DNA of 64,000 nt from Thermodesulfobacteriota bacterium (GTDB lineage: Bacteria; Desulfobacterota; RBG-13-43-22): NCBI GenBank assembly GCA_040755035.1, contig JBFMBU010000082.1, positions 25,464-89,463 on the forward strand, given 5' to 3'. The notes below the pieces were generated by a model, which had not been told where the DNA came from, made no database searches, and saw only the letters and a program-made list of their open reading frames with translations. Both the position numbers and the translations under genes were made by a program. Positions 8,636-39,543 of the stretch are shown piece by piece (positions within the stretch are counted from its first letter, which is position 1; each line of letters begins with the position of its first letter).

Positions 8636-8648
8636 GGTTTCATTTCCT

Positions 8649-14261: not shown

Positions 14262-14540
14262 TAATCTTTATTTCCTAATTTGTGTCCATCCGGAAATTCA
14301 AAAATTTCCGGGAAAAGCATACAGCAGTCAGCCATCAGAAATAAGCAGACCCGCTTGAATAAAGGGTTTTACTGAAGGCTAAGGGCTGGTCGCTATTCGC
14401 TCCATCGGGATAGAATTTTTCCCGGATGAAGCTATATTACATTAGTAGTAAAATTGATGGGGCTGGTCAATTCATTTCTTTCAACTCTACGAAAACATCG
14501 TTATTGAACGAAAGCAACGTGCTTTTCCCTTTCTAAAATT

Positions 14541-14601
14541 CCCAACCCGGACCAGCTGGAACAAAAATGGATATGCGAAAATTTCTCCTTCGGTCCGGGT
14601 T
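14541..14601. repeat. REP-like repeat, copy 3
   Basis: cccaacccggaccagctggaacaaaaatggatatgcgaaaatttctccttcggtccgggtt. Confidence 0.75.
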
Positions 14602-14655
14602 TATTAAAAGTTTCATAATAGTCTGGAAATGAAACTTGTGCTATGTGTTTGATAA

Positions 14656-14960
14656 AGGATCGGGGAGGTTTTCTTTTTGGGGTTGTCCACCCTGAACCTG
14701 GGAGCTTCTTTGCCGGGCAAATTATTTATCTAAACCGAGAGCAGGCCTTCACCGGAGATGGAAACGGGTCGGTCGGCTTTGCCGACCAAAGAGGAGGCTT
14801 CCAAAGGAAGCCGGGCTGTATGCCCTGCCTCGAACATAACTTAGCTGGACTGGCCGGGAGGTCGATAGACCGACCTCAAAGAAAACCCCCCTGCGGGGGC
14901 CGGGATAGGGCGACCAATTACCCTTTGGACAATCCCCAAAAAGAAAACCTCCCCGATCCT
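14656..14960. repeat. 305-bp element bounded by perfect 27-bp inverted repeats, rich in internal GC hairpins
   Basis: Arms aggatcggggaggttttctttttgggg (14656-14682) and ccccaaaaagaaaacctccccgatcct (14934-14960). Internal hairpins near 14771-14787, 14796-14812 and 14886-14899. Confidence 0.7.
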
Positions 14961-15149
14961 TTTTTGTCTATATTATTTTGAGACCCTTAATAATTCCTGT
15001 TCTAGAATAAATTCTATCCCCGTTGCCTAACCTTCAATTCTTAATTTACCAAACGATAACTGAAGTTTTTTTTAAGAATTATAGATTCTTATCGTTGCTG
15101 ATCGCTTAAGCGGTCAAAAAAGAAAATACACCATATATAGTATTTTTTC

Positions 15150-25738: not shown

Positions 25739-26977
25739 TTATCGGTTCTTTGGTTGGCTAAAGGCGAAACCCAGGGTGCCGACAAGGCCGAATATAAAGG
25801 CCGTGATCAGATTGACCTGAGGGCTGATTTGCCACAGGAAAGCCCCGCCCAGGGCGGCCAGGGAAACCACCATATCCCGGATCAGGTAATAAAGACCGAA
25901 CATGCCGGCCTTGCAGTGATCCGGACACAAGTCCATGATCAGGGACTTGCGGGTGGGCTCTCCGAATTCCTTCAGCCCGCGAAGGATGAAGGCGACCACC
26001 AGCCACTCGAAGGAACGGCTGAAGAGCAGCATCAGGGGAAAGAAGGTGAAGAAGACAAAGGTGATCAGGACAAAGGGTTTCTTCTCCGTCCGGTCAGCCA
26101 GATAAGCCACCGGGATATAGATCAATACCGCTGTGGCCATTTCGATGGAGGTCAGAAGACCGAACTGAACGGCCGACACCGGTTCGTTGATGGTTTTCAT
26201 GGCCCAGATTACCACAAAGGCATAGGGGATCTGCTCGCAAAAACGGATCAGGATATCGGTGATGAGAAGGTTTCTCATGGCCGGGGTCATCAGGCGATAG
26301 AGTTTGACCGGGTTCTTTTCCGGTTTTAATTCGCAGGTCTCTTCGGAAGAGGCCTTATCCGGATGGTCGCTTTCAATCATTCGCTGTTGCAGCCATAAAG
26401 CGACCAGAGACATGACGAGGGCGGCCACAAAGGCAAGCCTCACCCCGTTTTTTTCACCCCAGACCCCGATAAAAAGGCCTCCTGCTAAGGGACCCAGGGC
26501 CATAGGGATGCGGCGTACCAGGGAATGCATGGTCACCCCCATGGTCCGTTTGTTTTGGGGGAGCACTTTATAGATCAGGTTCATAGTGGCCGGCAGGGAA
26601 ATGGCCGACCAGGAGATAAACAGCACAGCCCCGGCCAAAACCGCCTTCCAGGAGGGAATGGCGATGACCAGGCCAAACCCGATCATGGCCACCAGATTGA
26701 AAACGAACAGGGACCTTTTGGTTCCGATGCGGTCGGCCAGATAACCGCCCGGAAAACTGTAAAGGGCAGAGAGCAGGTTGTCCATGGCCTGCAGCAGGCC
26801 CACGGTCAGGACGCCGCCGCCTAAGGCCAGCAGGTAAATAGGCAGGAAGCGCTCGGCCATCCGCTCCCCCATGCCGACCAGTATGACCATAGCCAAAAGA
26901 CCGATCGTACTCTGCTGCAGGGCCAGAAAGGCGGCAACTCCGCCAAGGCGTTTATTTATAGTGGATGTAGGTTTCAT
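25739..26977 (-). CDS. MFS transporter
   Basis: 12 transmembrane helices and MFS motifs. The start is probably MKPTSTINK (26977) rather than the ORF start at 27058. Confidence 0.75.
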   Translation of the reverse strand: MKPTSTINKRLGGVAAFLALQQSTIGLLAMVILVGMGERMAERFLPIYLLALGGGVLTVGLLQAMDNLLSALYSFPGGYLADRIGTKRSLFVFNLVAMIGFGLVIAIPSWKAVLAGAVLFISWSAISLPATMNLIYKVLPQNKRTMGVTMHSLVRRIPMALGPLAGGLFIGVWGEKNGVRLAFVAALVMSLVALWLQQRMIESDHPDKASSEETCELKPEKNPVKLYRLMTPAMRNLLITDILIRFCEQIPYAFVVIWAMKTINEPVSAVQFGLLTSIEMATAVLIYIPVAYLADRTEKKPFVLITFVFFTFFPLMLLFSRSFEWLVVAFILRGLKEFGEPTRKSLIMDLCPDHCKAGMFGLYYLIRDMVVSLAALGGAFLWQISPQVNLITAFIFGLVGTLGFAFSQPKNR

Positions 26978-27185
26978 TAAATTTATTTTTGGGAACGGGT
27001 TATCCATTTCATAGAATTTCTCCTTATCATCGGGTTTGCAAGCCATGAAGCATCTCAAAGATTTTAATGCCTTTTCCCAAGATTACTCCAGTGATCATAA
27101 TAGTAATGCCTGTTCACCCTTTTGCCAAGGGCTTTTTCTCTGATCGGATATTGACAACGAGACTATTTTTTGATTGAATGGCAAC

Positions 27186-27812
27186 ATGAGTGACGTAATC
27201 CAACCCATACTACTCATCATCCTGTCCTATCTATTCGGATCCATTTCCACCGGGGTGGTGCTTTCCAAGATTTTCGGCAAAGGGGACTTGCAGGAATCGG
27301 GAAGCAAAAATATCGGGGCCACCAATGTCTCCCGTTTAATGGGTCTTAAGTGGGGGATCCTGACCCTGGCCGGTGATACGCTAAAGGGGATCTTGGTTAT
27401 TTGGATCGGTTGGCGGTTTTTCGGAGCAGGATCGGATTCAGCCTTTCTAATCATCGCTCTCATGGGCCTGGCCGTATTTTTAGGTCATCTCTTCCCAATT
27501 TTTCTTCGATTTAAAGGCGGGAAGGGGGTTGCCACAGCCCTGGGGATTTTTCTTCTCCTGGGACCTAAGGCCATTCTGATCGCTTTACCCATTTTTATCG
27601 TCGTAGTTATTTTAGGAAAATATGTTTCCCTGGGGTCCCTAATTGCCGCCGCTTCCTTCCCCTTGGTCATGCTCTTTTTCCATTATCATTTTTATTACGT
27701 CCTTCTGGCGGCTGTGGTGGCCCTCGCCGTCATCCTCAAACATAAAACCAATATCTTCAGATTGCTCCGTGGGGAAGAAAAGCCCTGGCGCAGCAAGGAA
27801 AAAGCCGTTTAA
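27186..27812 (+). CDS. plsY: Glycerol-3-phosphate acyltransferase PlsY
   Basis: PlsY signature (GSKNIGATNVSR) and about 5 transmembrane helices. Confidence 0.85.
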   Translation: MSDVIQPILLIILSYLFGSISTGVVLSKIFGKGDLQESGSKNIGATNVSRLMGLKWGILTLAGDTLKGILVIWIGWRFFGAGSDSAFLIIALMGLAVFLGHLFPIFLRFKGGKGVATALGIFLLLGPKAILIALPIFIVVVILGKYVSLGSLIAAASFPLVMLFFHYHFYYVLLAAVVALAVILKHKTNIFRLLRGEEKPWRSKEKAV

Positions 27813-28063
27813 ATTTGATCGCAAACCTACTCTTTGGGTAATCGCGCATAAAATCCCGCAGTTCTCGATTACTGGTAGGTACATAGCCCGTTGCTCTGCC
27901 GGACCCTGTGCAAATGAGCAAACCCATCGATCTTTTCCCCTTAGTTACCACTTTTGTTAGTTTGGTTTATTAATAATTTCTAACAAAGACCAATTTACAT
28001 TAATTCCAAATAATTAAAATCAAGTCCTGGGCTTTTTCATTTGTTAGAAAACGATTTTTATTG

Positions 28064-28468
28064 TTAATAATCATTCTTCTTTTCTATAGAAACCCATCTC
28101 GGTGCTGATCGTGTCCCCAAGTTATGGATAACTCTTTTGTCTCTCAACTCCATAATTAAGTTGTGGATCAGGGCGTATTTTTGCTCTCCGGTTAAAATTT
28201 CGGGTAATTTGTCAAATATAAGATGATTAATCTCTTTTCTCGAAACAGGCCCATGTTCTCGGATCAATTCCAAAATCAAATCCTTATAATACTTCCGATC
28301 AAGACCTCTGGTTCTGATGTGTTGGGCCTGCTTGCCTATAACCTTTGCAATTTTTGCGCTGATATATATATTTGGATATCTTCCTTCAACCAGACTGAGT
28401 TTTTTCAACCGTTGATGAGCCTCTCGCTCGATTCGGATTCCTTTTTGGACCTTGTCCAACGGGATCAC
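28064..28468 (-). pseudogene. C-terminal wHTH fragment of a degraded COG2865-like (AlbA_2/HATPase_c_4/HTH) regulator
   Basis: 134-aa winged-helix-like tail. Lies 118 bp and one frame away from the 28586..29050 fragment. The N-terminal AlbA_2 (Schlafen-like) domain of the family is absent. Confidence 0.4.
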
Positions 28469-28585
28469 CGCCCAGAGATCAAGGTCCGTTCCAAGACATT
28501 TCTTGCTATCGTTCTGAAAAGTTATATGGTTTTGGACCTATTTATCCTCGGAATTAAATTGGACCATTCGCGCATTAATTGCGCA

Positions 28586-29050
28586 CTAATTGGGCATTCC
28601 ACCTTTCTGTCTTTGTAAATACCTGACCGATCTTCCCTTCCCCTCCTTGATAAAAAGCCCCTTTTCAACCAATTCTATAAGATCTTTTAGGGATTGACGG
28701 CGGCTTATTTCACATAGCTTTTGATAATCACGGTTCGTGATATACCCGTGTTGCCTGGTATATTCAAGTCCCTTCTTCTGCCGTTCATTAAATTTTTGTT
28801 CTGTTGGCAGTGAAATTATTTTTTCGGGCTTTATAAAACGGGCCATAAAGAAACCAGATTCTGAGAAAAATTCCAGCTTAATACCAGTCCCAGCGCAGGC
28901 ATCTGCCATACGTAAGGTTCCGGTTCCCCAATGCTCGATCAATCGTGCCCGATAAAAGGCCAAGGCGATCTTTGGATTGCGAGGGAGCGAAGGGTGTTCT
29001 CGATAAAGGCTCTCAACGGAGAGGGTAGGCGGTAAGGTGCCGGGTTTCAA
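28586..29050 (-). pseudogene. HATPase_c_4 (RecG-C-terminal-like) + wHTH fragment of a COG2865-like regulator
   Basis: LIEHWGTGTLRM signature of the HATPase_c_4 family followed by a wHTH. The ORF is N-terminally truncated relative to full-length family members. Confidence 0.5.
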
Positions 29051-29106
29051 ACTTCAAGTCCACATTCGATCAGATAGGTTAATAAACTTCTTTAAGAAAA
29101 GTGAAG

Positions 29107-29691
29107 TTACCATTTTTTAGCGATTGAAACTGGAAGCCCTACTCGCATAAAAAATCGAGCAAAAGCTTGGGATAAATGCTCTCTGTAGGGTGGGAGTAAT
29201 CGAAATCTAGGGACATTTCGTTGTTGAAGCAACGATTCTAAAAATTGACGTGGAAGGTTAAAGACCTCTCGAAAGTCAACAATTCGAGTTTCGATATTCT
29301 GTTTCCCCAATTTGCATTCATTTATCATTGAAAAATTCCATATAAAGCCATCACAAATGCCATCGCATTGGGCTTTCCATGCTTTATCTGTTGGATTCTG
29401 AGTCCGGTTCTTCATTTCTGCTTCCCAGTCCTTCTTATATTCCGAGAGTGAAATGTGGGAGCAAAGAATTACATTGGGGACTTTATTCTGTTCAAGATCA
29501 CAGGCTTGTGTCATAACAACAACATCTGCAATGATCGATATAATAGCGTTTGATAGTACCTCTGCTTCTAAGCTGCCTTTCAAAGCCAAATTACCGGCCT
29601 CCCAAGTAACAATTGGGCAATTTGCAATAATATCCCCCTGAGTTAGAGGCCTATCAGCATCTACTATTTCGTACCACTGATTATTCATCAA
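29107..29691 (-). CDS. Hypothetical protein (island operon gene 3)
   Basis: 194 aa with no recognisable family. Its start overlaps the stop of the upstream gene by 11 bp. AT-rich codon usage. Confidence 0.5.
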   Translation of the reverse strand: MMNNQWYEIVDADRPLTQGDIIANCPIVTWEAGNLALKGSLEAEVLSNAIISIIADVVVMTQACDLEQNKVPNVILCSHISLSEYKKDWEAEMKNRTQNPTDKAWKAQCDGICDGFIWNFSMINECKLGKQNIETRIVDFREVFNLPRQFLESLLQQRNVPRFRLLPPYREHLSQAFARFFMRVGLPVSIAKKW

Positions 29692-30187
29692 TATCCTTCA
29701 TTATTCGGCTGCTGATTTCAATAAAAGGCTTCCAGCGAGGTAAATCATAAGTTTTTAGTGTTATTTTTTTCGAAAATAGCACGGTTCTTTTATGTGGAGG
29801 GGTGATGACCCTAAGCTGAGCCTCTGGTTCTGATTCCTCTGTTTGACAGGTTTGTGAGGAAGGCAAACAAGAAGTTATTGTAACTTGAGATTGTTCAAGC
29901 TGTTCTTCTGTGGCTTCGTATATCATATGAGGTCTCATTATTATTTCAGAAGGATTAAAACTACTCTCCTTCCCCCAATAATATTTTTCCCGTTTATGGG
30001 TTAATGAAAAAGTGGGGGCCAATGCCTTATCTCGATCTGAAAAAATAACGACAGGTGTGTTCTGTTTATTAGATTCTTCCCTTGAATTCGTTTTTAACAG
30101 AATAGGAAGGATAGCAAATGAGGTGGTAGTGGAATTAAAGTTATATTCTATCTCAGAATAAGAATACATATCTATAATTTCCTCCAT
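29681..30187 (-). CDS. Hypothetical protein (island operon gene 2)
   Basis: 168 aa with no recognisable family. Overlaps both neighbouring genes. Confidence 0.5.
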   Translation of the reverse strand: MEEIIDMYSYSEIEYNFNSTTTSFAILPILLKTNSREESNKQNTPVVIFSDRDKALAPTFSLTHKREKYYWGKESSFNPSEIIMRPHMIYEATEEQLEQSQVTITSCLPSSQTCQTEESEPEAQLRVITPPHKRTVLFSKKITLKTYDLPRWKPFIEISSRIMKDIDE

Positions 30188-30993
30188 ATTTTCTTTTGTA
30201 TCTCTTCACTTGTCAAATCTGCAAATCCACGAACGATCCATTCCCTGGCGAGGTCAAACCAGGACCACATTCTTTCAATCGATTTATCCTTTCCAATCCC
30301 CCTTACGGTTGATTCCATCATTATAATCGGAACATTAACATCCCGTGATACTCCATTGCGGATTTTAATGTGCAACCGTCCCGACTGATTTGGCAGAACA
30401 AAAGTAGTATTCCAATTGATTCCCTCTGGTTCTGGGAGAAAACGACTGTTTCCTTTTCCAATAATATGGTCCGGGAAAACCTTGCCAATTTCTTTTAAAG
30501 TCGTCCAAAGTTCATTCTGAGATATATGGTTAACGTAAGTCATTTCATATTGGAGAGGTTCTATAGGACCTAAATCGTTTTCTTTTAAAAAAGACTGAAA
30601 ATGCTCCAGACGATCTTTAAATATCGCAATAACCTCATGATACCGAGGATATGCATCATCCGGTCGGACCTTCTTCCAATTATGTAGAAACCGGTCCCTT
30701 TGTATCTGAATAATTCCTCTGCCGTCCGAATGGATAAACCAGATTCGAGGTAACGGTGGTTTGTCACTAAAAGCAAATTGAGCCTCAACTGGTCCTTCAA
30801 ATCGCTCAATAACCGGAGTTAATGGAGGAACTTCCTGGCAATTTGGATATTCACTTTTATACTTCTCCCAAATCACACCCAGGTGTGGAGCAAGCAGGGA
30901 TTCGATTGATTTAAAAAGAACTCCGCAAACCACCTCGATGACCGGGGGATTTTCATAACTGGGGAATTCTGTCTTTTTAATATTCATTTTCAT
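30172..30993 (-). CDS. TIGR04255-like conserved hypothetical protein (island operon gene 1)
   Basis: 273 aa. The N-terminal motif (YENPPVIEVVCGVLF) resembles the uncharacterised TIGR04255 family. Confidence 0.5.
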   Translation of the reverse strand: MKMNIKKTEFPSYENPPVIEVVCGVLFKSIESLLAPHLGVIWEKYKSEYPNCQEVPPLTPVIERFEGPVEAQFAFSDKPPLPRIWFIHSDGRGIIQIQRDRFLHNWKKVRPDDAYPRYHEVIAIFKDRLEHFQSFLKENDLGPIEPLQYEMTYVNHISQNELWTTLKEIGKVFPDHIIGKGNSRFLPEPEGINWNTTFVLPNQSGRLHIKIRNGVSRDVNVPIIMMESTVRGIGKDKSIERMWSWFDLAREWIVRGFADLTSEEIQKKIWRKL

Positions 30994-31126
30994 TTTCCTT
31001 AAAGACTTAACCGGCGTTTATCAATTATATTATACTTTTTCCCTCCAAATATATATATAAATTTAGTCACTACCCTCTCATTTTCAACTCTAAGTTTAAA
31101 AATCTACAATTATAACGCCACAATAT

Positions 31127-31447
31127 TTAAGTTTTATTAGAATATTCAATTAGTTTTATTTCATCAGAAGTTAAGTTATAAAGATCATAGACCAGCCGGT
31201 TGATTTCGGTTTCGAGCTGAGGAACAGAGGGGCTGTCGGGATCGGCCAGGATAGTCTGGACGAGTTTGATGATTGGGGCTTTTTGCTTTTCTGATGCAGG
31301 GAAAACAGGAACACCTCCCACATACATGGGTTTATATTGCAGGAACCCACCGGAACGGGTGGCAGCCTGAAGGCTGATCCACCATTTGCAAAGAAGTGAG
31401 TTTGAAACGGTTAAGAGGTAACGATCCTTTGTCGGGATGATATTTGC
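31127..31447 (-). pseudogene. C-terminal relic (about 107 codons) of a Type IIG/BREX-PglX-like N6-adenine DNA methyltransferase
   Basis: The frame is open from the stop at 31448-31450. It reads ...LLTVSNSLLCKWWISLQAATRSGGFLQYKPMYVGGVPVFPASEKQKAPIIKLVQTILA...EINRLVYDLYNLTSDEIKLIE, which are hallmark C-terminal motifs of these methyltransferases. There is no upstream methyltransferase body. Confidence 0.6.
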
Positions 31448-31632
31448 TCACAATCGTTACGAATGAAGGGACGAAGTTTCACACCATTCCCCGGCAGTAG
31501 AAACTTCTTTGAACTCCCTTTTTTTTATATAAGGAGCAATTTCTTCCTGGAGTTTTTGAAAGCTTTTCTTTGCCTCATCAAAACGAATTTGTTTATTTTT
31601 TTCAATTTGATTTTTAGATTCTATTTTATCAT

Positions 31633-32535
31633 TCATTTGTTTTCCTCTCTAATTCCTGCAGCAAATGAAAGGTTTTTACTTTCAATACATTTTGAAGATT
31701 TAGTCGAAACAAGGTTATTTGTTCGAATATACAACTCGTAAATCAACTCCCAAAATCTGTTTTTTACATCCTTTGATTCTATTTGTAGGCCGCATTGCTC
31801 TGCCTCTTCTCGGTAAATCGGTCTGCCATGTGTTTTGGTTCGCTCTGGTGTTAAAAATATTTTAATTTTATTTATTATTTCATCATTTGAAAATCCATTC
31901 ATCATACCGGAGGCGAGTGTTCTTATTGCAATATCTTCTGCCAAGGATTGGGCTGCCCTAAATTCCTTAATTTCCCTTTCATCATAATTTGCCAATTGCT
32001 GCAAATAAGGCTGCAAATTCCCCTTCTCGTTTACGGCTCTTAAAAATAAGTCGTCATAGCTCTCGATAACGTTATAAACTGAAAATCTTTTAACGGTATT
32101 ACCTTCGGGGATTGTGAGTTGGGGATCAATTGGGCCTAATTCTGATGTTGGCCCCATAATAATCTTGCTTGCCCCAAAACATATCATTGTTGCTGCAGAT
32201 TTTGCCTTTCCTGGTACAATTGCCCAATATTCGTCAGTTCCACTATAGCTCCTGCAGACATTAACTATCCTTTCAGCAGCAAGGCCATCACCACCGGGTG
32301 AATTAATAAATAACGCCAATCCCTTTGTCAGGTCTAGTTTTTGTAAAACCCCTTCTAACATATCAGCATCGGCATCTTCGATCATAACAGGGAACCTAAA
32401 ACTTGTAAAAAAAGAAACCACAGGCCTTTTGAGTTCTTTTTCCAACTGATCAAAAATTATTTGGCGCGTTTCATGCCCTTGGTGTTGTTCCGTTAAAACT
32501 CTCTGAATGACCGGATATGGATTTTCTTTTTTCAT
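31633..32535 (-). CDS. SDH-family Clp-fold serine protease (S49/ClpP-like)
   Basis: 300 aa. Contains LALFINSPGGDGLAAERI, the ClpP/S49 INSPGG-type active-site region. Confidence 0.65.
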   Translation of the reverse strand: MKKENPYPVIQRVLTEQHQGHETRQIIFDQLEKELKRPVVSFFTSFRFPVMIEDADADMLEGVLQKLDLTKGLALFINSPGGDGLAAERIVNVCRSYSGTDEYWAIVPGKAKSAATMICFGASKIIMGPTSELGPIDPQLTIPEGNTVKRFSVYNVIESYDDLFLRAVNEKGNLQPYLQQLANYDEREIKEFRAAQSLAEDIAIRTLASGMMNGFSNDEIINKIKIFLTPERTKTHGRPIYREEAEQCGLQIESKDVKNRFWELIYELYIRTNNLVSTKSSKCIESKNLSFAAGIREENK

Positions 32536-32596
32536 ACAATTTTCCTTTTCGAAATATTATAGCATAAAATTAATAGGAATTTATTATTATTTTAAT

Positions 32597-32806
32597 TTAA
32601 TTTCCTTCCTGTTTATTATTACCATAAGTTTCAACTAGTTCTATCTCCTCCGGTGTTAGGTTGTAGAGGCCATAGACGAGGTGGTTAATTTCGGTTTCGA
32701 GTTGGGGGACAGAGGGGCTGTCGGGATCGGCCAGGATGGTCTGGACGAGTTTGATGATTGGGGCTTTTTCACTGGCAGCAGCAAATGAGATAATCATCAT
32801 TCCCAT
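32597..32806 (-). pseudogene. Second, shorter copy of the methyltransferase C-terminal relic
   Basis: ASEKAPIIKLVQTILADPDSPSVPQLETEINHLVYGLYNLTPEEIELVE. About 110 bp of DNA (32662-32769) is roughly 93% identical to 31176-31283. Confidence 0.55.
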
Positions 32807-32854
32807 CTATTCCACTTCGGATCAGACAAACCCAAACTAATCAATTTTAGCTGA

Positions 32855-35464
32855 TTATTTTGATATTGTTTTTTGTATCAAAGCCCAATCAGTCCCTTTA
32901 GCCATAACGAACAAACATCTTCCCCCGCTTCTTTCAGCCCAAAGCTCCCCTACAACCCTTTTTTCTTTTGAATCATCATTGCTCCAGAGATGTTCTCCTT
33001 TAAATTCCACCACCAATATCCTATCATCCTGTAATTTGGCGATGAAATCGGGATAGAATCGGTCAGTAGAGGTTTGAAGCCAAAAGGATGTATCTCTGCG
33101 ACGTTCTAAATTCCGAACCCAATATTTTATTTGAGGCTGGCTGTCTAAGAATATGGCACAGTCCAATTCTTCCCCTTCGGATTTTAATTCTCCAATTGTT
33201 TTAAAAAAATGCTTTCGGAATTTGAATAAGCCTTCATAATACCAATTGGGGGCATACTTTTCTTCGATAAAACTAAAACAGAGTTCCGAATTAACTTCAA
33301 TCTTAAATGAATCCGGACCGAATAAGCATTGTTGGTAAGCCTTAAGGTTCTGAGAACGGCGGTGGTTTTGAATTTTTGACTCAAAGGCATTCTTTAACCG
33401 AAATTTTTCCCTGGCTAACCGCTCAATGGTTAGATCTCGGTGCTCGATTAGTCCACTGATCCCCTTATGGATGAAAAGACCGGTCTGGGTTTGGGGAATA
33501 TCCGGGTGGGGTATCTGACGGTCGATCCAATTTGCCAATGAGGCCACCGTCCAGCCCGGTTCCGAAGAAAGCCAGTCAAGTTGCTCATGGATTTTATCGA
33601 TAAAATGGACTTCAATCTTTCCTTGATCATCAACATCCAATTCCCCTGTGGACCCTGCAATCCTTTTTGAGGGAAATTCTCCTTCACTTAAAAAAGCGTC
33701 ACATTCAGATAGATTCCAATGAAAGTCCAAGAAGTGGCTTTCTTCAAACACCTCCAATTGATCCTCACTTCGGATCCCCATTAAGGGAATGATAAACTCA
33801 TCTTTCTTTCCTTGAGACGGCACTGACCCGTCGCCCCCCCTTGGTAATCTATCAAAAAGTTGCTTAATCGCGGTCTGATCCTCAAGACTACTCAAAGAAT
33901 TTAGAACACTCTGCCTTTCGGCGGCATTAAGATCTCCGGTTAAGGTCAATTTTCCGGTGCTTTGCTCATAAGATACTACTTGCTGAATTAAAGGAGACAG
34001 TTTTGATAAATCAGGGGGTTGGGAAATCCTTTCGAATAATGGCCCCGGATGGGTCACCCACCTGATTTGTTCATTGGGTATCACAAAATCATTGGCTTCT
34101 ATTCTTTGGAAACCGTTCTCAATGAGGGCATCCTTTAAGGCGTTGGCGGCTTCAATAAATTTAGGAGAGGCGACAAAGGCATAGGCACAATTTAATTCAG
34201 GGTGATTTTTCTTTTTTGCTCCCGGTAAACGGAGGACCCGGCCTAAAATTTGTTCTACCGCGCGGGAAGAACTGATTTCAGCTACGGAGCATAAGATGTA
34301 GGCAAAAGAACAATCCCAACCTTCCTTGAGGGCATACACCGTGATAATAAAACGAATGGGACAGGCAGGGTCAAATAAGTCAACATCATCAATCTGCCGG
34401 GTTTGACCGGTGGCTACGGCAATTTGCTCTTCTGGAATTTTAAAGTCTTCAATCAAACCCTTTCGGAGCGCTTCTACTGATAATGTTTGCTTTTCTTTGC
34501 TCTTAGGTTGAGCTTGTAACAGCACCAGAGGGCGGAGATATTCTCCCGTCAATTTTTCTTCTCTTTTTCCCATCTCCTCCAAGCTGCGCTGCATCTGGAG
34601 GGCTTCGGTAATAACCTCCTGCCAGTCCACATTGGTCGCCAACCTGATTGGAAGCTTTATCATTTCCTGGGTCTTTAGCTCGGCGGCCGACACATGACAC
34701 AAGACGTTACTGGCAAATAGTTCTTGGTCCGGTTTATGAATCATTTCAGGGGTGGCCGTAAACTCAATAATACAGGAAGGATTAAAACGGGCCAGTGTGT
34801 CGAAGGATAGTGGCGTTCGGGCATTATGGGCCTCATCCATAATAACAATGGGTCTCCATAGTCTTAAAACATTGGAAAGGGAATGCTGGAAAGTACTATC
34901 CTCTTCCCTGTCAAGACCTTCCTTAACTTTTTCGGACAAACCGGAAAAATGATGGGAAAGGGCACTGGAGGATTCATAAACCTTTCTGCCTTCTGTGTCC
35001 TCAACACGGAGGGCGGCTAAGGTTGAAACAATGATTGATGTCTCGCCCTCCAAGGTGCTTCTTTGGACATATAAGGCCTCGCTGATATCCATGACCCTGA
35101 CCAATCCTTCAAATTGAGCATCAAGCACTTGGCGGTAGGGATGTTCACGATTCCGTAAGGCAGCCAAGGTTTGGTCTTTAATAGCGTTTGAAGGGACCAG
35201 CCAGAGGCAAACGGCCCGTTCCGTTTGTAAAAAAGATCGTGCAGCAATCCCTAAAGTATGGCAGGCCATTAAGGTCTTTCCGCCGCCGGTAGGGACCCGA
35301 AGGCAAACATAAGGCAATTCAGGAAGTCGAGGAACAGACCGGTAAGGTCTTTCAGTTTGAAGCAGGAAGGCCCTTTTTGCACCCTCCAGGGTTGCCAGGC
35401 CCAAATAGGTCGTTAATTCCTCAAGACTTCGTCTCTGGTATTCTCGAAGTGGAAGCATGTTCAA
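32855..35464 (-). CDS. res: Type III restriction enzyme Res subunit (SF2 helicase + PD-(D/E)xK nuclease)
   Basis: Walker A (VPTGGGKT) and a DEAH box (VIMDEAHN). C-terminal nuclease motif (YPDF...VVEFKGE). Overlaps the end of mod by 4 bp. Confidence 0.85.
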   Translation of the reverse strand: MNMLPLREYQRRSLEELTTYLGLATLEGAKRAFLLQTERPYRSVPRLPELPYVCLRVPTGGGKTLMACHTLGIAARSFLQTERAVCLWLVPSNAIKDQTLAALRNREHPYRQVLDAQFEGLVRVMDISEALYVQRSTLEGETSIIVSTLAALRVEDTEGRKVYESSSALSHHFSGLSEKVKEGLDREEDSTFQHSLSNVLRLWRPIVIMDEAHNARTPLSFDTLARFNPSCIIEFTATPEMIHKPDQELFASNVLCHVSAAELKTQEMIKLPIRLATNVDWQEVITEALQMQRSLEEMGKREEKLTGEYLRPLVLLQAQPKSKEKQTLSVEALRKGLIEDFKIPEEQIAVATGQTRQIDDVDLFDPACPIRFIITVYALKEGWDCSFAYILCSVAEISSSRAVEQILGRVLRLPGAKKKNHPELNCAYAFVASPKFIEAANALKDALIENGFQRIEANDFVIPNEQIRWVTHPGPLFERISQPPDLSKLSPLIQQVVSYEQSTGKLTLTGDLNAAERQSVLNSLSSLEDQTAIKQLFDRLPRGGDGSVPSQGKKDEFIIPLMGIRSEDQLEVFEESHFLDFHWNLSECDAFLSEGEFPSKRIAGSTGELDVDDQGKIEVHFIDKIHEQLDWLSSEPGWTVASLANWIDRQIPHPDIPQTQTGLFIHKGISGLIEHRDLTIERLAREKFRLKNAFESKIQNHRRSQNLKAYQQCLFGPDSFKIEVNSELCFSFIEEKYAPNWYYEGLFKFRKHFFKTIGELKSEGEELDCAIFLDSQPQIKYWVRNLERRRDTSFWLQTSTDRFYPDFIAKLQDDRILVVEFKGEHLWSNDDSKEKRVVGELWAERSGGRCLFVMAKGTDWALIQKTISK

Positions 35465-37152
35465 CTGACCTTGATATCATATGGGATTTGTTTGAAGGTG
35501 ATTCCTTCTTTCCTGAGCCGGGTCTCCCCGATCCGACAACCCTCCCCATAAACAACTTTTGGCCCATCATGCCCGGGTAGGGCTTGAAGGACTTCAAGGG
35601 TCAATATATTACCGCCATTAGGCCGTTTGTCCCCCAGCACTCCATTAAACAAAAGAAAAATGGCCTGACCATTATGGATTCCTAAAAAAGGGGATTTCCC
35701 CTTTACCGTTTTAGGAATCGGCGAACCTGTCTCAGAAAAGAATACATGAGCTGATAGATCGGCAAAAGTAACCGTTGGGCGAATATTTCCGGCCTCATCA
35801 AAAAGCGGCTCCCCAAGCCTGCAATAGCGAAATCCTCCATCAAGTCCCGTGGTGTTCCCATAGCCGTTAACAGCCCTTGTTAGTCTTTGTGCCGTTACCT
35901 TGCGGCAGATGTTTTCATCCATCTCGACCAGGATAAAGCGCCGGTTTCCCCCATCCTCTTTGTTCAGGCCAAGGACAGCATGTCCGGTAGAACCACTGCC
36001 GGCAAAGGAATCAAGAACCAGAGAATCTTTGTCTGTCCCTATTTCTAAAATACGTTTGATCAATCGGGTTGGTTTTGGGGTAATAAAAACGGAGGCCGAA
36101 TCCTCAAAGTCACAAATAGCTACGAGTTCTTTTTTTGCATCCTGTGTATGGCCAACATCCTGGTAGCCCCATAGGGTTTGCGGAACGACACCTTGCTTAA
36201 CTTCGGATAAAAATCTTTTCAACTGCGGAATGGAATCCCCTTTTTTCCCCCACCAAATTCTCTTATCTGCATCAAGTTCAAGGAATTTTTCCTTTGCGTA
36301 TCGCCAGTATGCCCCCTTTGGTGGCCCCTCGATCACGCGTCCAGAAGGGCAGGTAATTGAATAGGTGCCTCTGCTGTAAGGGTTCCTTGCATCTAATCCG
36401 CTCGGTTTCCAAAGACCTCGGGGATCATTGTCTGGGTTTTTATATGCCTTGTCTTGCTTTATGGTTCGAGAGATAAGATTCGGGCGCCAGACATCCGCCG
36501 ACTTCGCATAGACAATGATATAATCATGATCTTCTGAAAAATGTTTTGCCGAATTTTTTGGAGAATAGACTTTTTGCCATATTACGGCTGCAATAAAGTT
36601 TCGCGGTCCAAAAACCTCATCCATCAGCATCCGAAGAGAGGACACTTCATTGTCATCAATACTGATAAAGATTGCCCCGTCCTCTGACAAGAATTCCCTT
36701 AAGAGCGAAAGACGTGGATACATCATGCACAACCATTTGTCGTGCCGGGAAAGATCCTCTGCCTCAGACCCTACCACCTTGCCCAGCCAACGCCTCATTT
36801 CAGGGCTATTGACGGCATCATTGTAAACCCAATTTTCATTGCCGGTATTATAGGGGGGATCGATATAGATACACTTGACCTTTCCGGCATAGAAGGGGAG
36901 CAAAGCCTTGAGGGCCAAAAGGTTATCACCCTGAACCAACAGATTCCCGCTGTCCAGGTCTCCAAGAGAAAGATTTTCTTCGTTATGTAAAAGATGATAG
37001 GGGACCTGACGGTGGTGATTCAAAACCGCCTTTTTCCCGATCCATTCAAGTGTTGGCATTTTATGCCCTTTTATTAAAAATAAATAATCTGAATCGAAAT
37101 ATATTTCATTTATCTTATTGATCGCGGTTTTGAAATATCTCCCCGAGATCAA
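35461..37152 (-). CDS. mod: Type III restriction-modification Mod subunit (N6-adenine DNA methyltransferase)
   Basis: DPPY motif (CIYIDPPYNTG) and an FxGxG region (VLDSFAGSGSTGHA). N-terminus resembles EcoP15I-Mod. The start may instead be MPTLEWIGK at 37056. Confidence 0.85.
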   Translation of the reverse strand: MISGRYFKTAINKINEIYFDSDYLFLIKGHKMPTLEWIGKKAVLNHHRQVPYHLLHNEENLSLGDLDSGNLLVQGDNLLALKALLPFYAGKVKCIYIDPPYNTGNENWVYNDAVNSPEMRRWLGKVVGSEAEDLSRHDKWLCMMYPRLSLLREFLSEDGAIFISIDDNEVSSLRMLMDEVFGPRNFIAAVIWQKVYSPKNSAKHFSEDHDYIIVYAKSADVWRPNLISRTIKQDKAYKNPDNDPRGLWKPSGLDARNPYSRGTYSITCPSGRVIEGPPKGAYWRYAKEKFLELDADKRIWWGKKGDSIPQLKRFLSEVKQGVVPQTLWGYQDVGHTQDAKKELVAICDFEDSASVFITPKPTRLIKRILEIGTDKDSLVLDSFAGSGSTGHAVLGLNKEDGGNRRFILVEMDENICRKVTAQRLTRAVNGYGNTTGLDGGFRYCRLGEPLFDEAGNIRPTVTFADLSAHVFFSETGSPIPKTVKGKSPFLGIHNGQAIFLLFNGVLGDKRPNGGNILTLEVLQALPGHDGPKVVYGEGCRIGETRLRKEGITFKQIPYDIKVS

Positions 37153-37157
37153 TTTGA

Positions 37158-37859
37158 TTACTTATGCAGGGCGTCGCCATATTCCAGAAAAAAATTCTCT
37201 ATCTGCTTCAAACGCCCTCCTTTGTCTGGTATCCCTTTTAAGATGAAGGACAGGTAAATCCGCCAGGCCGAATCCGGCAATTCCATATTGGATTCGGTCC
37301 ATCCGAATATCCAATGGGCAGGGATAATCTTGACAAAACCGGGCCAGTAATGTTGAAAAGCCTTTTCTTCTTCGCACAATAACAAATGATATCCGTAATC
37401 CTCGAGGATGTATTCAAGCCTTGACGGTCTTGGTTCTTCATCATCATCGAAGCCAGCCAAGAAATCCTGGTGGGGATCATCATAAACCAAGCCCTTAAGA
37501 TTTTCGATATCAGGATTTTCTTCGAAGTCTTCCGGAAAATCATAGGCGGGGTGTAACCCATGTGAGTTTTCATAAAACCCGGCATCCCAACCAAGAGAAA
37601 TTCCGGAATAATCTTTGCTGGTAAGAATGTAATCCCTGACCTTCTGCTGATTTTCCGTGAGGTCGATTTCACAATTATAAAGATAAGCATGGAGCCACTC
37701 TTCATAAGGGATTTCCTTATTGAAGTTTCCCTGGTCGTCTTTCGGATAATCGTTAAGACGGTAATCTTTCAGGATCAGCATATCCCTGTAAACCACTTCA
37801 TCCGGATAAGGGACAACCCATCCGTTATTAAGCACTTTTTGGATACGAAAAGATTCCAT
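37158..37859 (-). CDS. Acidic hypothetical protein co-operonic with mod-res
   Basis: 233 aa, very Asp/Glu-rich. Its stop lies 5 bp upstream of the annotated mod start. No recognisable domain. Confidence 0.5.
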   Translation of the reverse strand: MESFRIQKVLNNGWVVPYPDEVVYRDMLILKDYRLNDYPKDDQGNFNKEIPYEEWLHAYLYNCEIDLTENQQKVRDYILTSKDYSGISLGWDAGFYENSHGLHPAYDFPEDFEENPDIENLKGLVYDDPHQDFLAGFDDDEEPRPSRLEYILEDYGYHLLLCEEEKAFQHYWPGFVKIIPAHWIFGWTESNMELPDSAWRIYLSFILKGIPDKGGRLKQIENFFLEYGDALHK

Positions 37860-38166
37860 GGGGTTTTCCTATTATAATCTCCCTGGGAGTAATAAATACA
37901 TTTGCTTAATAATCAAAATGAAAGATTCCGTGAGATTGAAGTTTTTCTCATTGGTGATGAAGGTTAGGTCGGTGGTCATTTTTCCTAAAAGGAAAGATAT
38001 TAAATAAGAGGAATTATAGCAACCCTTGAAAATTAATCAATTATTTCTTTTATTAAGAATCGCAAGATAAACAAAATTAAATGACCTGGGGTTTAAAAGA
38101 GAAAAAAGTGCAATAGACCGTCGAACTCTTTAGGGGAATTTTTTTGTCACATGAAAAACGGTTTTT

Positions 38167-39543
38167 TCATACCTTTTTTTTCTTCCAGCGCCCCTTTTGG
38201 AAGTAAACAATATAGGCCGCCGCTCCGAAGACCAGGCTTAACACCAGGGCCCAGCGGATACCATAAACCCCCAGACCGGTCAGGCGCGGGAGCAGAAAAG
38301 CAGACGGTAAAAGAATCAGCCAGGTGCTGAGGATACTGATGAACATAGGGGGGAGGGTATCGCCACTGCCGGAAATGGCATTCTGCAGGCAGAGGATAAA
38401 TCCCTGCACCAAATAGCCGGTGGCGGCGATGCGGAGAAAAGTACTCCCGATTTGAATCAGTTCAGGTTCGATGGTAAACAGGCGCATCAGGGAGGGAGCC
38501 AGGAGCAGAACGGCAGCGGCGCAGAGGACCATAAAGCCCTCCAGGATAGCCGTGGCCATCCAGCCGGTTTGCTCGGCCCGCCGGGGTTGTTTGGCTCCCA
38601 GGTTTTGACCCACCAGGACCCCGGCCCCCATCCCCAGTCCCAGACCGGGCATAAGGACGAACATCTCCACCCGCTGATTGAGGGTATGGGCGGCCACAGC
38701 CAGGGTGCCGAAAGGAACCATGATTTTCATCAAAACCGTCTGTCCCAAATTCCCTTGAACACCCATGATCAGGGCCGGCAGGCCGATCCTGATCATTTGC
38801 CGGATGCAGACCAAGTCCAGTCGAAAACCCCGCAGGGTCAGTCTCAATCTTGAATTTTCACCAAGAAAAAGGATCCAGAGTGATATGAACATCCCCAGAG
38901 CCTGACCGATGATCATAGCCAGAGCTGCTCCCTGAACCCCGAGTCTGGGGAAAACCCACCAACCGAAGACCAGAAAAGGACTCAAAATAAGCTGGACGCT
39001 GCGGGTAAAGAGATGAATATACATTGGAGTCGTGGCATCCCCGGAGGATTGCATGAGACTGAAGGCCATCAGCCAGAGTGAATAAAAGATCCAACCGCCA
39101 AAGAGCATGCGCATATAATCAGCACCCAGGGCGGCCACCCCCGGCTTTAAGCCAAAAATACTCATTATTTGGGAGGAAAAAATTAAGCCGAGGAAACTAA
39201 AAAAGATCCCGTATAAGACGCTGACCACAAAGGCCTGGGTCCCGATATGATTGGCTCGTTGAAAATCACCACTTCCAATGGCTCTGGCCACCATAGCCCG
39301 AGCCCCGCCGACCAATCCCATTTTAGCTGAAAGGACCAACATATGGACAATAAAGGCTGTACCCACTCCAGCCACCGCCGCGGACCCCAGCCTTCCTATC
39401 CAGATCATATCCACGGTCTGCCCTACCATATAGAGGGCATTGTGGACCATGATCGGCCAGGACAGGGTGACAAGATTACCGGTGACGCTCCCCTGGACCC
39501 AGTTGCGTTGGGAAGACGATCTTTTTTCAGTGGTTGGTTTCAC
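38167..39543 (-). CDS. MATE family efflux transporter
   Basis: 458 aa with 12 transmembrane helices. MATE N-terminal signature (LSWPIMVHNALYMVGQTVDMIWIGRLG). Confidence 0.85.
   Translation of the reverse strand: MKPTTEKRSSSQRNWVQGSVTGNLVTLSWPIMVHNALYMVGQTVDMIWIGRLGSAAVAGVGTAFIVHMLVLSAKMGLVGGARAMVARAIGSGDFQRANHIGTQAFVVSVLYGIFFSFLGLIFSSQIMSIFGLKPGVAALGADYMRMLFGGWIFYSLWLMAFSLMQSSGDATTPMYIHLFTRSVQLILSPFLVFGWWVFPRLGVQGAALAMIIGQALGMFISLWILFLGENSRLRLTLRGFRLDLVCIRQMIRIGLPALIMGVQGNLGQTVLMKIMVPFGTLAVAAHTLNQRVEMFVLMPGLGLGMGAGVLVGQNLGAKQPRRAEQTGWMATAILEGFMVLCAAAVLLLAPSLMRLFTIEPELIQIGSTFLRIAATGYLVQGFILCLQNAISGSGDTLPPMFISILSTWLILLPSAFLLPRLTGLGVYGIRWALVLSLVFGAAAYIVYFQKGRWKKKKV

Follow-up and report, generated by a model that had tools for sequence, protein, structure and literature searches.

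A probable mosaic defence island in an uncultured Thermodesulfobacteriota bacterium contains a widespread TIGR04255-headed gene trio

We analysed a window of 64,000 nucleotides (the whole stretch of DNA considered here) from an uncultured Thermodesulfobacteriota bacterium, in which the roughly 10.3 kb between plsY and a MATE transporter gene is probably a horizontally acquired defence island that became a mosaic by serial replacement (Table 1). Its novel part is a trio of genes headed by a member of the TIGR04255 family, widespread and never studied, which we tentatively propose as a candidate tripartite toxin-antitoxin or abortive-infection module. An earlier note on this DNA had described an AT-rich, unidirectional accessory island of defence type; every item on its gene list was verified, with the refinements given below.

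Composition and boundaries of the island

The region is compositionally foreign: its GC content is 0.416 against 0.507 for the remainder of the window, and in 1-kb bins GC drops to 0.36-0.42 across 28-34 kb and 37-38 kb. GC3 of the island genes ranges from 0.25 to 0.47, about 2.9 to 7 SD below the 0.614±0.05 of 25 long ORFs beyond the island, and the DNA within the island falls into two compositional classes. From 28064 to 37859, all ORFs with family or homology support lie on the minus strand, as had been noted. A Pfam scan of eight sequences (seven plus-strand ORFs of 62-131 aa and a minus-strand 36-aa helicase remnant) returned no match. The best promoter-like site of the island, a consensus match only, has 10/12 matches and an extended -10.

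The housekeeping flanks named previously (plsY, MATE and EF-G) were confirmed, and the MATE protein is 71-81% identical across related MAGs. In the two relatives with informative flanks, L001 and L004, which are not very close (MATE identity 79% and 73%, respectively), plsY and MATE adjoin with a spacing of 190-270 nt and the island is not present between them. This adjacency indicates that the region is an insertion, and the synteny comparison proposed in the earlier note thus supports the island claim. Similarity to the L102 DNA 3' of its trio extends to window position 27938; beyond it, the sequences between the genes in L001 and L004 differ too much from the window for the exact left junction to be placed. 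The small and not very close sample of relatives leaves some room for an ancestral presence of the region in the lineage, with later loss from these relatives, a reading to which we give hardly any credence, given the depressed GC3 relative to host genes, the short plsY-MATE spacer in two independent relatives and the near-identical architecture of each module in unrelated hosts and contexts, archaea included.

Domain and tRNA searches agree with the statement that no integrase, transposase or tRNA is visible: integrase and transposase domains were found neither within the island nor in its immediate flanks, no tRNA was found in the entire window, and the two junction zones share no att-like repeat of at least 8 nt. 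The missing tRNA and att repeat weigh against a decayed prophage or integrative element with incidental cargo in place of a defence island, which we regard as very improbable. The protease does match phrog_11747 (~1e-40) and, weakly, head-maturation proteases, and trio gene 3 matches phrog_4575 and has relatives in four IMG/VR contigs. However, profile searches revealed no structural, replication, lysis or integrase genes in the island, gene 3 was unmatched among 50,697 phage records, the protease had no relative in IMG/VR, and the recognisable content consists of restriction-modification and defence genes or remnants thereof. Known defence islands and hotspots between conserved core genes likewise have foreign composition, are missing where relatives have the corresponding junction of core genes, pack several defence modules and turn over by replacement. 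The present island differs from them in its lack of integrase, transposase, tRNA and att repeat, and in an unusually legible history, with one 5' and four 3' gene stubs on the same strand.

Table 1 Features of the island and its flanks (window coordinates).
Feature	Coordinates	Strand	Description
Island	27813-38166		Between plsY and MATE gene
plsY	27174..27812	+	Left housekeeping flank, outside island; PF02660, 2.6e-51
Left junction zone	27813..27937	.	True island boundary somewhere within
orf134	28064..28489	-	3' fragment of Schlafen/COG2865-type gene, without nuclease and ATPase domains
orf154	28586..29050	-	Separate COG2865-type 3' fragment; partial HATPase_c_4 and winged HTH, natural C-terminus
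Trio gene 3 (193 aa)	29107..29688	-	Predicted MazF/CcdB fold; invariant C-terminal tail (LLPPYREHLSQAFARFFMRVGLP); candidate toxin/effector
Trio gene 2 (168 aa)	29681..30187	-	Hypervariable except for the C-terminal ~45 aa (…LF…LPRWKP…), which are conserved; candidate antitoxin/sensor
Trio gene 1 (271 aa)	30172..30987	-	TIGR04255 family; tandem TBP-like fold
Relic B	31130..31447	-	Last ~105 Type IIG codons; scar of the gene preceding the trio in its closest relatives, L016 and L102
59-aa partner gene	31457..31636	-	Overlaps protease stop; conserved C-terminal motif EGEWCETS
ClpP-like SDH-type serine protease (300 aa)	31633..32535	-	PF01972, 2.9e-12
Relic A	32603..32782	-	Last ~55 Type IIG codons; upstream bracket of protease cassette
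Res, Type III restriction subunit (869 aa)	32855..35464	-	Apparently intact
Mod, Type III methyltransferase	35461..37059	-	Apparently intact; probable start M32 of listed ORF; 4-nt overlap with res
orf233	37158..37859	-	Acidic (pI 4.5), rare family, upstream of mod-res
Helicase scar	37905..37982	-	Start codon and first 25 codons (MTTDLTFITNE…) of PLD/SNF2-helicase gene
Promoter-like site	38013..38040	-	TTGATT-16-TGnTATAAT, directly upstream of helicase scar
MATE transporter	38167..39543	-	Right housekeeping flank, outside island; MatE PF01554, 2.6e-55

Defence genes, gene remnants and mosaic history

The Type III mod-res system was confirmed by full-length profile matches, including those from the defence finder PADLOC that the earlier note had recommended. 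Mod matches MTase_III from residue 32 over profile positions 1-541 of 542 (3.7e-212) and N6_N4_Mtase (3.5e-41), with DPPY and FAGSG motifs in its translation; Res matches REase_III over positions 53-877 of 898 (1.8e-133) and ResIII (4e-14), and its translation contains a Walker A PTGGGKT, DEAH and YPD…EFK. With the EcoP15I/EcoP1I class the system shares the mod-then-res order, the 4-nt overlap, the Type III profiles and the DPPY, FxGxG, DEAH helicase and C-terminal PD…ExK motifs; it differs in the rare acidic 233-aa gene upstream. In Type III systems, Mod hemi-methylates asymmetric sites and Res, an ATP-dependent helicase-nuclease, cuts DNA with unmethylated, inversely oriented sites, and the pair in the window would work today by this established mechanism. 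Profile searches with orf233 gave no family matches; its family comprises 37 cluster representatives in 1.84 billion proteins, and homologues precede a ResIII enzyme in L110 and an HD/Cas3_HD nuclease in L111.

Downstream of mod-res, the earlier note had seen a methyltransferase relic duplicated around a Clp-fold protease. The duplication stands, as a direct repeat of 158 nt (82% identical, spaced 1485 nt; D1) flanking the protease, and the relics can now be described as 3' ends of Type IIG restriction-methylase genes: relic A matches the L102 IIG C-terminus with 79% identity in protein, and relic B is 86% identical to the intact C-terminus in L102 and 64% to that in L016 (tblastn). The protease scores 46.6 bits against PF01972 (cutoff 31.3) and matches phrog_11747 at 1.2e-40; its 2688 homologues, 65-90% identical, come from bacteria and archaea. 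Where the surroundings of protease homologues were inspected, toxin-antitoxin genes and transposases are abundant, and an ORF of 53-65 aa follows the protease in L103-L109. The unit of relic, protease, orf59 and relic (window 32769-31141) matches L103 6768-8396 at 84.7%, with an identical downstream junction. This bracketed cassette is kept at that level of identity in L103 and L104 and was seen only there and in the window; no such brackets were seen around the protease homologues in L105, L108 and L109. Elements such as e14 or phage 21 in E. coli icd and tRNA-targeting islands integrate at a gene's 3' end and supply a replacement copy. The cassette resembles them in its direct repeats, each the 3' end of one gene type, and in the downstream junction shared by two genomes; it differs in having no integrase and in upstream copies truncated at differing points. 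Homologous recombination between paralogous Type IIG 3' ends would explain the brackets equally well.

What had been called a degraded COG2865-like regulator remnant is indeed an HATPase_c_4/COG2865 remnant, but it consists of two separate Schlafen-type 3' fragments, probably from defence genes and not regulators, since a preprint reports the prokaryotic Schlafen class pSlfn-HisKinase-HTH (COG2865) as antiviral effectors (bioRxiv 10.1101/2025.07.24.666596). The first, orf134, corresponds to residues 418-549 of an intact 555-aa homologue in L103 (63% identity at window 28489-28094; tblastn), which comprises SLFN_AlbA_2 and HATPase_c_4 and adjoins the same protease cassette. The second, orf154, matches PF13749 (9.9e-11, profile positions 18-82 of 89) and phrog_12156 (positions 328-479 of 485), and had no match to the L103 protein at E<=1e-3. 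Both correspond to the HATPase_c_4/HTH C-terminal parts of the reported effectors and differ from them in lacking the N-terminal Schlafen/AlbA_2 nuclease domain, which marks them as dead remnants.

At the opposite end of the island lies a helicase scar that was absent from the earlier gene list. Its codons 1-25, at window 37979-37905, are 72% identical (tblastn) to the start of the first gene of a seven-gene system in contig L016. That gene encodes a PLD/SNF2 helicase, and the system also includes a Type IIG restriction-methylase together with a TIGR04255 trio; at the DNA level, window 37982-37926 matches L016 1060-1116 at 79% (blastn). Window 31311-29108 in turn matches L016 7692-9892, and window 31447-29107, which spans relic B and the trio, matches L102 853-3224 at 83% (DNA). 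Together with those to L103, these matches show a mosaic structure at the level of DNA similarity, and the helicase-start scar suggests that the island was built upon an L016-like seven-gene system, the interior of which has since been replaced.

From these scars we infer how, and in what order, the replacements took place. The original occupant would have been the L016-like system, of which only helicase codons 1-25, the last ~105 Type IIG codons and the complete trio would survive. Its interior would have been overwritten by two blocks: (a) orf233 with the intact mod-res pair, and (b) the protease with its 59-aa partner, accompanied by a Type IIG 3' end of its own, consistent with recombination at, or integration into, the conserved 3' end of the Type IIG gene. 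The two Schlafen/COG2865-type fragments lie at the island's distal end. Searches for a recombinase, an att site or a junction repeat behind these events were negative.

Conservation and genomic neighbourhood of the trio

The three-gene operon recognised in the earlier note proved to be a conserved TIGR04255-headed trio with thousands of homologues, the third protein of which is predicted to be MazF/CcdB-like. Gene 2 shares 16 nt with gene 1 and 8 nt with gene 3. In each of the 46 sampled loci that extend at least 1.3 kb past gene 1, ORFs follow TIGR04255 tightly on the same strand; there are two such ORFs in 45 of these loci, and one was detected in L065. The downstream pairs are swappable, the window type being present in 31 of the 46, and a reciprocal search from gene 3 recovered TIGR04255 in viral contigs (136 and 96 bits). 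Across the same 35 loci, mean identity to homologues is 0.61 for gene 1, 0.60 for gene 3 and 0.23 for gene 2. Gene 2 had no match in Pfam, PADLOC, NCBIfam or PHROG, and no fold or domain was detectable in it. No trio protein was matched by PADLOC, which fits its novelty, and a literature search returned no publication on the TIGR04255 trio. In L032 and L034 gene 3 has been deleted and genes 1 and 2 are kept; by analogy, this would be the kind of loss that toxin-antitoxin systems tolerate.

The trio typically lies just downstream of methylation-based defence systems, mostly Type IIG/ISP, Type I, Type III, BREX and DUF499 systems. It is found directly 3' of Type IIG/ISP genes, on the same strand, in L016, L017, L102, L018-20, L026, L030 and L032/34, and together with a PLD/SNF2 helicase and a IIG-like methylase, in differing gene orders, in three lineages (L016, L032/34 and L064). 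It also follows a Type III Res (L054), BrxL (L038), DUF499 (L070), a MobF relaxase on a Mycobacterium plasmid and the non-defence genes FapA and DUF6880, and viral contigs carry it with no adjacent methylase. The many loci with Type IIG/ISP genes immediately upstream and the recurrent helicase and methylase partners could mean that the trio is not autonomous, serving as a restriction, regulatory or specificity component of the preceding Type IIG/helicase or another methylase system; the window copy, which retains only a Type IIG relic beside it, would then be a non-functional orphan. We consider this decidedly improbable, because no partner is constant among the unrelated systems and non-defence genes that the trio follows, the viral copies have no methylase next to them, and the window copies keep all family-invariant residues.

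Candidate function of the trio

If the trio is a toxin-antitoxin or abortive-infection module, gene 3 would be the growth-arresting effector, probably an RNase. Gene 2 would keep it inactive through the conserved C-terminal anchor, and its hypervariable part may sense the trigger. The constant tandem TBP-like protein encoded by gene 1 would act as a scaffold or substrate-binding partner, like the TBP domains of the anti-phage RNase toxin RnlA, which bind substrate and of which TBP1 is required (PMC8266594). RnlA-RnlB and LsoA-LsoB would resemble a trio of this kind in that tandem TBP-like domains work with an RNase and a small inhibitor.

The assignment of gene 3 as a MazF/CcdB-like toxin is a prediction from its modelled fold. 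The family profile found no PDB sequence, hhalign against MazF/Kid gave a probability of 0.2%, no catalytic residues were mappable, and the protein is ~80 residues longer than MazF. It shows no sequence or profile similarity to MazEF/Kid-Kis/CcdAB or to ToxN/AbiQ/CptN. From the former class it also differs in length (193 aa vs ~110) and in its extra invariant C-terminal segment, and the trio differs in having three genes instead of two. Neither an AbrB, RHH or other DNA-binding domain of type II antitoxins nor the RNA-repeat antitoxin of the type III toxin systems ToxN/AbiQ/CptN is detectable in the trio.

The same predicted fold would suit selfish addiction modules, comprising the trio and perhaps the protease pair, that stabilise mobile DNA through post-segregational killing without contributing to phage defence; adjacency to restriction-modification genes would then merely reflect shared residence in variable hotspots. 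The plasmid copy that adjoins a relaxase, the toxin-antitoxin genes and transposases around protease homologues and the missing PADLOC matches are in keeping with such modules. However, a hypervariable gene 2 beside two constrained partners is more typical of arms-race sensing, as are the swappable downstream pairs, and the flanking genes are strongly biased to methylation-based defence systems. These observations are not decisive, and we regard addiction as rather unlikely.

In PrrC-EcoprrI, the locus of a restriction-modification system also houses an abortive-infection RNase. Since the trio follows many unrelated restriction-modification types and non-restriction-modification genes, a specific physical partnership of the PrrC-EcoprrI kind is unlikely. 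The likeness lies in the physical linkage of a putative RNase-type suicide module with methylation-based defence loci, and by analogy it suggests that a toxin-antitoxin or abortive-infection trio could provide a second line of defence, triggered once restriction has been neutralised.

Acquisition of the island between plsY and the MATE gene

The region between plsY and the MATE transporter gene (window 27813-38166) is an acquired, mosaic defence island. Objects of this kind are known; this one is of moderate interest for a readable replacement history and a cargo of two widespread, unstudied modules. GC content is 0.416 over the island versus 0.507 in the rest of the window, and in 1-kb bins it is ~0.51 in the flanks, formed by the plsY, MatE transporter and EF-G genes, and drops to 0.36-0.42 across 28-34 kb and 37-38 kb. 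The GC3 of island genes lies at 0.25-0.47, compared with 0.614 ± 0.05 in 25 long ORFs from other parts of the window. Between 28064 and 37859, all ORFs with family or homology support are on the minus strand, and the seven plus-strand ORFs of the island that we tested gave no Pfam match. A tRNA search of the whole window returned none, no integrase or transposase domain occurs in the island or its adjoining genes, and the mobility signature used to recognise genomic islands (integrase, transposase, tRNA target, flanking repeats) is absent. The earlier note had described an acquired, defence-type island of foreign composition, coded on one strand and with no visible integrase, transposase or tRNA. 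Sliding GC and GC3, both depressed relative to flanks and host genes, agree with this description, as do the strand assignments and the domain and tRNA searches. Other low-GC 1-kb bins (0.41-0.46) at window 5001-6000, 7001-9000, 14001-15000 and 54001-55000 may be further acquired segments.

To place the island in its genomic setting, we scanned reference genomes with the MATE protein and obtained matches in uncultured Thermodesulfobacteriota (‘Deltaproteobacteria’) MAGs at 71-81% identity. The synteny comparison called for by the earlier note showed that in two of these related MAGs, L001 (MATE 79% identical) and L004 (73%), plsY and the MATE gene are adjacent, 270 nt and ~190 nt apart, respectively, and the island is missing. 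The class-V aminotransferase next in line is the same one as in the window. Since both genes are adjacent there, the ~10.3 kb between them in the window is an insertion relative to L001 and L004, and, with GC3 shifted, its acquisition is far more likely than deletion on two independent occasions. Matches to other loci show that the inserted DNA spans at least 27938-38040. The intergenic DNA is too diverged for alignment to the L001 and L004 plsY-MATE spacers to give base-exact junctions; att-like repeats of at least 8 nt common to both junction zones were not found. Apart from D1, the direct repeat shared by the two Type IIG relics of the island, long-range repeats were short and were dismissed as chance matches.

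The L001 and L004 spacers have a GC-rich hairpin-like motif in common (…GGGGTTGT.TTTTATGGAAGAAAATGC.ACCCC…), which resembles a bidirectional terminator; neither junction of the island shows it in recognisable form. Between the class-V aminotransferase and plsY, the window carries an MFS transporter gene of host-like GC (0.54). In the syntenic stretch of L001 and L004, the aminotransferase comes straight after plsY and this gene is missing, which marks another, independent indel at the site. Within 10 kb beyond the MATE gene, we detected no EF-G homologue in L001, L003 (another of the genomes searched) or L004, so synteny on the MATE-EF-G side is not conserved either.

Replacement scars and cargo of the island

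Features of the island and its plsY flank, with window coordinates
Feature	Positions	Strand	Evidence
MFS transporter gene	25739-27058		
Trio gene 3	29107-29688	minus	predicted MazF/CcdB beta-barrel fold
Trio gene 2	29681-30187	minus	hypervariable
Trio gene 1	30172-30987	minus	TIGR04255, 64.3 bits (curated NCBIfam cutoff 30)
Relic B	31130-31447	minus	last ~105 Type IIG codons
orf59	31457-31636	minus	59-aa partner of the protease
Protease	31633-32535	minus	PF01972, 46.6 bits (gathering threshold 31.3)
Relic A	32603-32782	minus	last ~55 Type IIG codons
Res	32855-35464	minus	PADLOC REase_III 1.8e-133, profile 53-877 of 898; PF04851 4e-14
Mod	35461-37059	minus	PADLOC MTase_III 3.7e-212, profile 1-541 of 542; PF01555 3.5e-41
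Helicase scar	37982-37905	minus	start codon and first 25 codons (MTTDLTFITNE…)

The island contains a unit of three genes, hereafter the trio, whose closest relatives are found at the loci L016 (gene 1 79% identical) and L102 (86%), both of which have a complete Type IIG restriction-methylase directly upstream. In DNA alignments, window 31447-29107 is 83% identical to L102 853-3224, and window 31311-29108 matches L016 7692-9892. Because this shared block begins within the final ~105 Type IIG codons, relic B is the stub of such a gene; its protein is 86% identical to the L102 Type IIG, and the block ends exactly at the gene 3 stop. Neither relic is a full-length Type IIG gene with nuclease, methyltransferase and TRD domains; what remains is the final ~55 codons in relic A and ~105 in relic B. 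At the other end of the island, the helicase scar retains the beginning of a PLD/SNF2-helicase gene, the opener of the L016 system, and directly upstream of it lies the island’s best promoter-like site (consensus match only). Both ends of an L016-type system, the helicase start and the Type IIG end with its trio, are thus present, with its interior replaced. The replacement consists of orf233-mod-res, with GC3 of 0.44-0.47, and of relic A, protease, orf59 and relic B, with GC3 of 0.25-0.36.

The L016 system itself (L016 1063-9893) comprises seven genes, namely a helicase in two pieces (691 and 390 aa), a Type IIG protein also in two (319 and 836 aa), and the trio; the helicase parts have only weak DrmD, BrxH and ZacB-like matches in PADLOC. 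Helicase, IIG-like methylase and trio also occur together in the loci L032/L034 and L064, in differing gene orders. We considered the Type IIG relic as a possible part of the trio cassette and rejected this, as none of 80 metagenome loci has a relic-only copy upstream of the trio. The relic is lineage-specific.

The first part of the replacement includes the Type III mod-res pair recognised in the earlier note, an assignment confirmed by end-to-end profile matches to an N6/N4 methyltransferase (Mod) and to a ResIII helicase with C-terminal endonuclease (Res). The Mod translation, which probably starts at M32 of the listed ORF, contains DPPY and FAGSG motifs, the Res translation contains Walker A, DEAH and YPD…EFK motifs, and the two genes overlap by 4 nt. 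The Type III R-M system is apparently intact. Upstream of it, orf233 encodes an acidic protein (pI 4.5) whose family is rare, counting 37 representatives in 1.84 billion clusters. One orf233 homologue heads a ResIII operon with an adjoining integrase (L110), and another heads an HD/Cas3_HD gene (L111).

The second part carries a 300-aa ClpP-like protease of the SDH type. Its match to the NCBIfam equivalog NF047768 (SDH family Clp fold serine proteinase) reaches 53.6 bits against a cutoff of 250, and by its sequence it belongs to a subfamily distinct from NF047768; it also matches phrog_11747 at 1e-40. We found 2688 homologues at 65-90% identity in bacteria and archaea, often in surroundings rich in toxin-antitoxin and transposase genes. 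In every context examined, the protease is followed by an ORF of 53-65 aa with a C-terminal EGEWCETS-like motif. IMG/VR holds no close relative of the protease, a literature search for defence roles of SDH proteases returned nothing relevant, and neither the protease nor orf233 has a match in PADLOC-DB v2.0.0 at E ≤ 0.01. The protease and its micro-protein, like the TIGR04255 trio, are a widespread, cross-domain and unstudied gene set, and neither set is in PADLOC.

The protease cassette is conserved as a unit, since window 32769-31141 corresponds to L103 6768-8396 at 84.7%, and L104, a further protease-cassette locus, also carries it. In a seven-way alignment, all relic copies stop at the Type IIG stop codon. 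The downstream copy has the same start junction in the window and L103, right after the orf59 stop, and the upstream copies are cut at differing points (about 175, 230 and 250 nt). From these patterns we infer a single ancestral event, in which the cassette, with a replacement Type IIG 3′ end, would have inserted near the 3′ end of a Type IIG gene; independent deletions would have come later. Entry could have been by Campbell-type or homologous recombination at the conserved Type IIG 3′ segment, for which e14 or phage 21 in icd is an analogue. The relic does not belong intrinsically to the protease module, as it is absent from the protease loci L105, L108 and L109. L103 has an array of three Type IIG 3′-end relic copies (3074-8398), which separate a DUF433/DUF5615 toxin-antitoxin pair and an intact 555-aa Schlafen/COG2865 gene from the protease and its 59-aa gene. 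Further downstream, at a distance of 3-6 kb, are two tyrosine integrases and genes of IS21/Mu type.

Fragments of Schlafen/COG2865 genes are present in the island as well. At its distal end, orf134 corresponds to residues 418-549 of the 555-aa L103 protein (63% identity), and orf154, a fragment distinct from it, combines part of HATPase_c_4 with an HTH and extends to a natural C-terminus. The N-terminal Schlafen/AlbA_2 nuclease domain is missing from both, leaving only the C-terminal part of HATPase_c_4, the HTH and the C-terminal tail. Proteins of the pSlfn-HisKinase-HTH class have been reported as antiviral effectors (2025 preprint, bioRxiv 10.1101/2025.07.24.666596). Given this report and the missing nuclease domain, orf134 and orf154 are remnants of dead defence genes. 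The scars of the island, one 5′ and four 3′ gene stubs on one strand, form a readable record of successive replacements, and make it a sequence-level example of defence hotspot turnover by recombination at conserved gene ends without a resident recombinase.

Distribution and architecture of the TIGR04255 trio

Gene 1 belongs to the TIGR04255 family, and a protein identical to it is named ‘TIGR04255 family protein’ in its source. It has more than 1176 homologues at 54-86% identity, Asgard archaea included, and gene 3 has 4659, which lack a Pfam domain or name. We sampled 80 metagenome loci, 46 of which have enough sequence after gene 1 to read the architecture. All 46 have same-strand ORFs tight behind gene 1, two in each case except L065, with one detected. 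The downstream pair is of the window type in 31 loci, a second, unrelated pair (254-263 aa plus ~143 aa) in ~10, and of other types in ~5. Alternative trios, with an unrelated downstream pair that lacks a Pfam domain, are those of L037, L039, L041, L042, L049, L051-L054 and L073, and that of the plasmid locus L116; a single case of DUF7689 is the only known domain among the alternative partners.

Sequence conservation is uneven across the trio. Over 35 loci, genes 1 and 3 average 0.61 and 0.60 identity to the window, compared with 0.23 for gene 2, which is conserved only in its last ~45 residues; its conserved C-terminal segment reads LF…LPRWKP. Gene 3 has invariant residues D55, T60, Q61, C63 and D64 and an invariant C-terminal tail. 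In L032 and L034 (7283-7357), gene 3 is gone except for its last 25 codons, and genes 1 and 2 are intact. A reverse search from gene 3 reached viral contigs with gene 3 only 34-36% identical, in two of which the first gene still matches TIGR04255 (136 and 96 bits); a search of 50,697 phage records gave no gene 3 match. A search of a plasmid collection with gene 1 gave one match. A Mycobacterium paragordonae plasmid (L116, NZ_CP025547.1 79746-81485) carries a TIGR04255 trio of 261, 180 and 142 aa directly after a MobF relaxase.

The surroundings of the trio point mostly to methylation-based immunity. The Pfam families seen most often in 90 flanking proteins are Eco57I methylase (7), N6_Mtase (5), Methylase_S (3), phage integrase (3) and DUF499 (2). 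Immediately upstream of the trio we find a Type IIG or ISP gene in L016, L102, L018-20, L026, L030 and L032/34, a Type III Res in L054, DUF499 in L070 and BrxL in L038. A rival reading, which we consider unlikely, is that the trio is an accessory of the adjoining methylase system; the few trio loci that have non-defence neighbours speak against it. A universal Type IIG neighbour was rejected, since the neighbours are diverse, mostly methylation-based systems. The trio stands out by its design of constant, hypervariable and toxin-fold genes and by this association, and these two properties mark it as a candidate, open to direct testing, for a new family of defence or toxin-antitoxin systems. 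No match at E ≤ 0.01 was obtained in PADLOC-DB v2.0.0 for genes 1-3 or for the trio partners of L016 and L021, and a literature search with the term TIGR04255 returned no paper.

Predicted folds and possible role of the trio

What we infer of trio function draws on predicted folds and gene neighbourhoods. The predicted fold of gene 3 is the MazF/CcdB beta-barrel. By sequence, it falls outside MazF/PemK and CcdB, with no Pfam match; its family profile found nothing among PDB sequences, and hhalign against MazF/Kid gave a probability of 0.2%. MazF/PemK and CcdB toxins are encoded in two-gene operons with an upstream DNA-binding antitoxin, whereas the trio has three genes, and its gene 2 has no detectable domain. 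Gene 1 has only a chance-level sequence match among solved structures (E = 0.16). Its predicted tandem TBP-like domains resemble RnlA/LsoA-type toxins; however, these fuse a HEPN RNase to the TBP part, whereas gene 1 ends after the second repeat and the predicted fold of gene 3 is MazF/CcdB, not HEPN. RnlA has its tandem TBP-like domains ahead of the RNase domain and requires TBP1 to bind substrate (PMC8266594). For an RNA antitoxin of the type III style or another RNA gene, we found no tandem array and no Rfam match above threshold. An isrI sRNA match inside the gene 3 coding sequence (window 29522-29665, minus strand) was discarded as chance (27.8 bits versus a gathering score of 45, E = 0.089).

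A tentative arrangement, to which we give slightly less than even credence, is that gene 3 would be the effector, probably an RNase or other growth-arresting toxin, which gene 2 would neutralise through its conserved C-terminal anchor. The fast-evolving remainder of gene 2 may sense, or be targeted by, an invader, and gene 1 would serve as a constant scaffold or substrate-binding partner, with RnlA as precedent. The loss of gene 3 with retention of genes 1 and 2 in L032/L034 is in the direction expected for a toxin. A rival reading, less likely in our view, takes the trio as a pure addiction module. Rather unlikely, in our estimate, is a broader version of the effector arrangement, in which TIGR04255 trios would be a large, undescribed and modular anti-phage family of bacteria, archaea and their mobile elements. 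Each trio would combine a tandem-TBP-like protein that stays constant, an adaptor or sensor that is hypervariable and an effector that can be swapped (here of predicted MazF/CcdB fold), and would sit preferentially 3′ of methylation-based defence systems (Type IIG/ISP, I, III, BREX and DUF499) as a second-line, abortive-infection guard that would fire once restriction is bypassed or inhibited. The ClpP-like protease and its micro-protein would add to these islands another undescribed module, one of two genes. The plasmid copy in a cultured Mycobacterium provides an experimental entry point for the trio.
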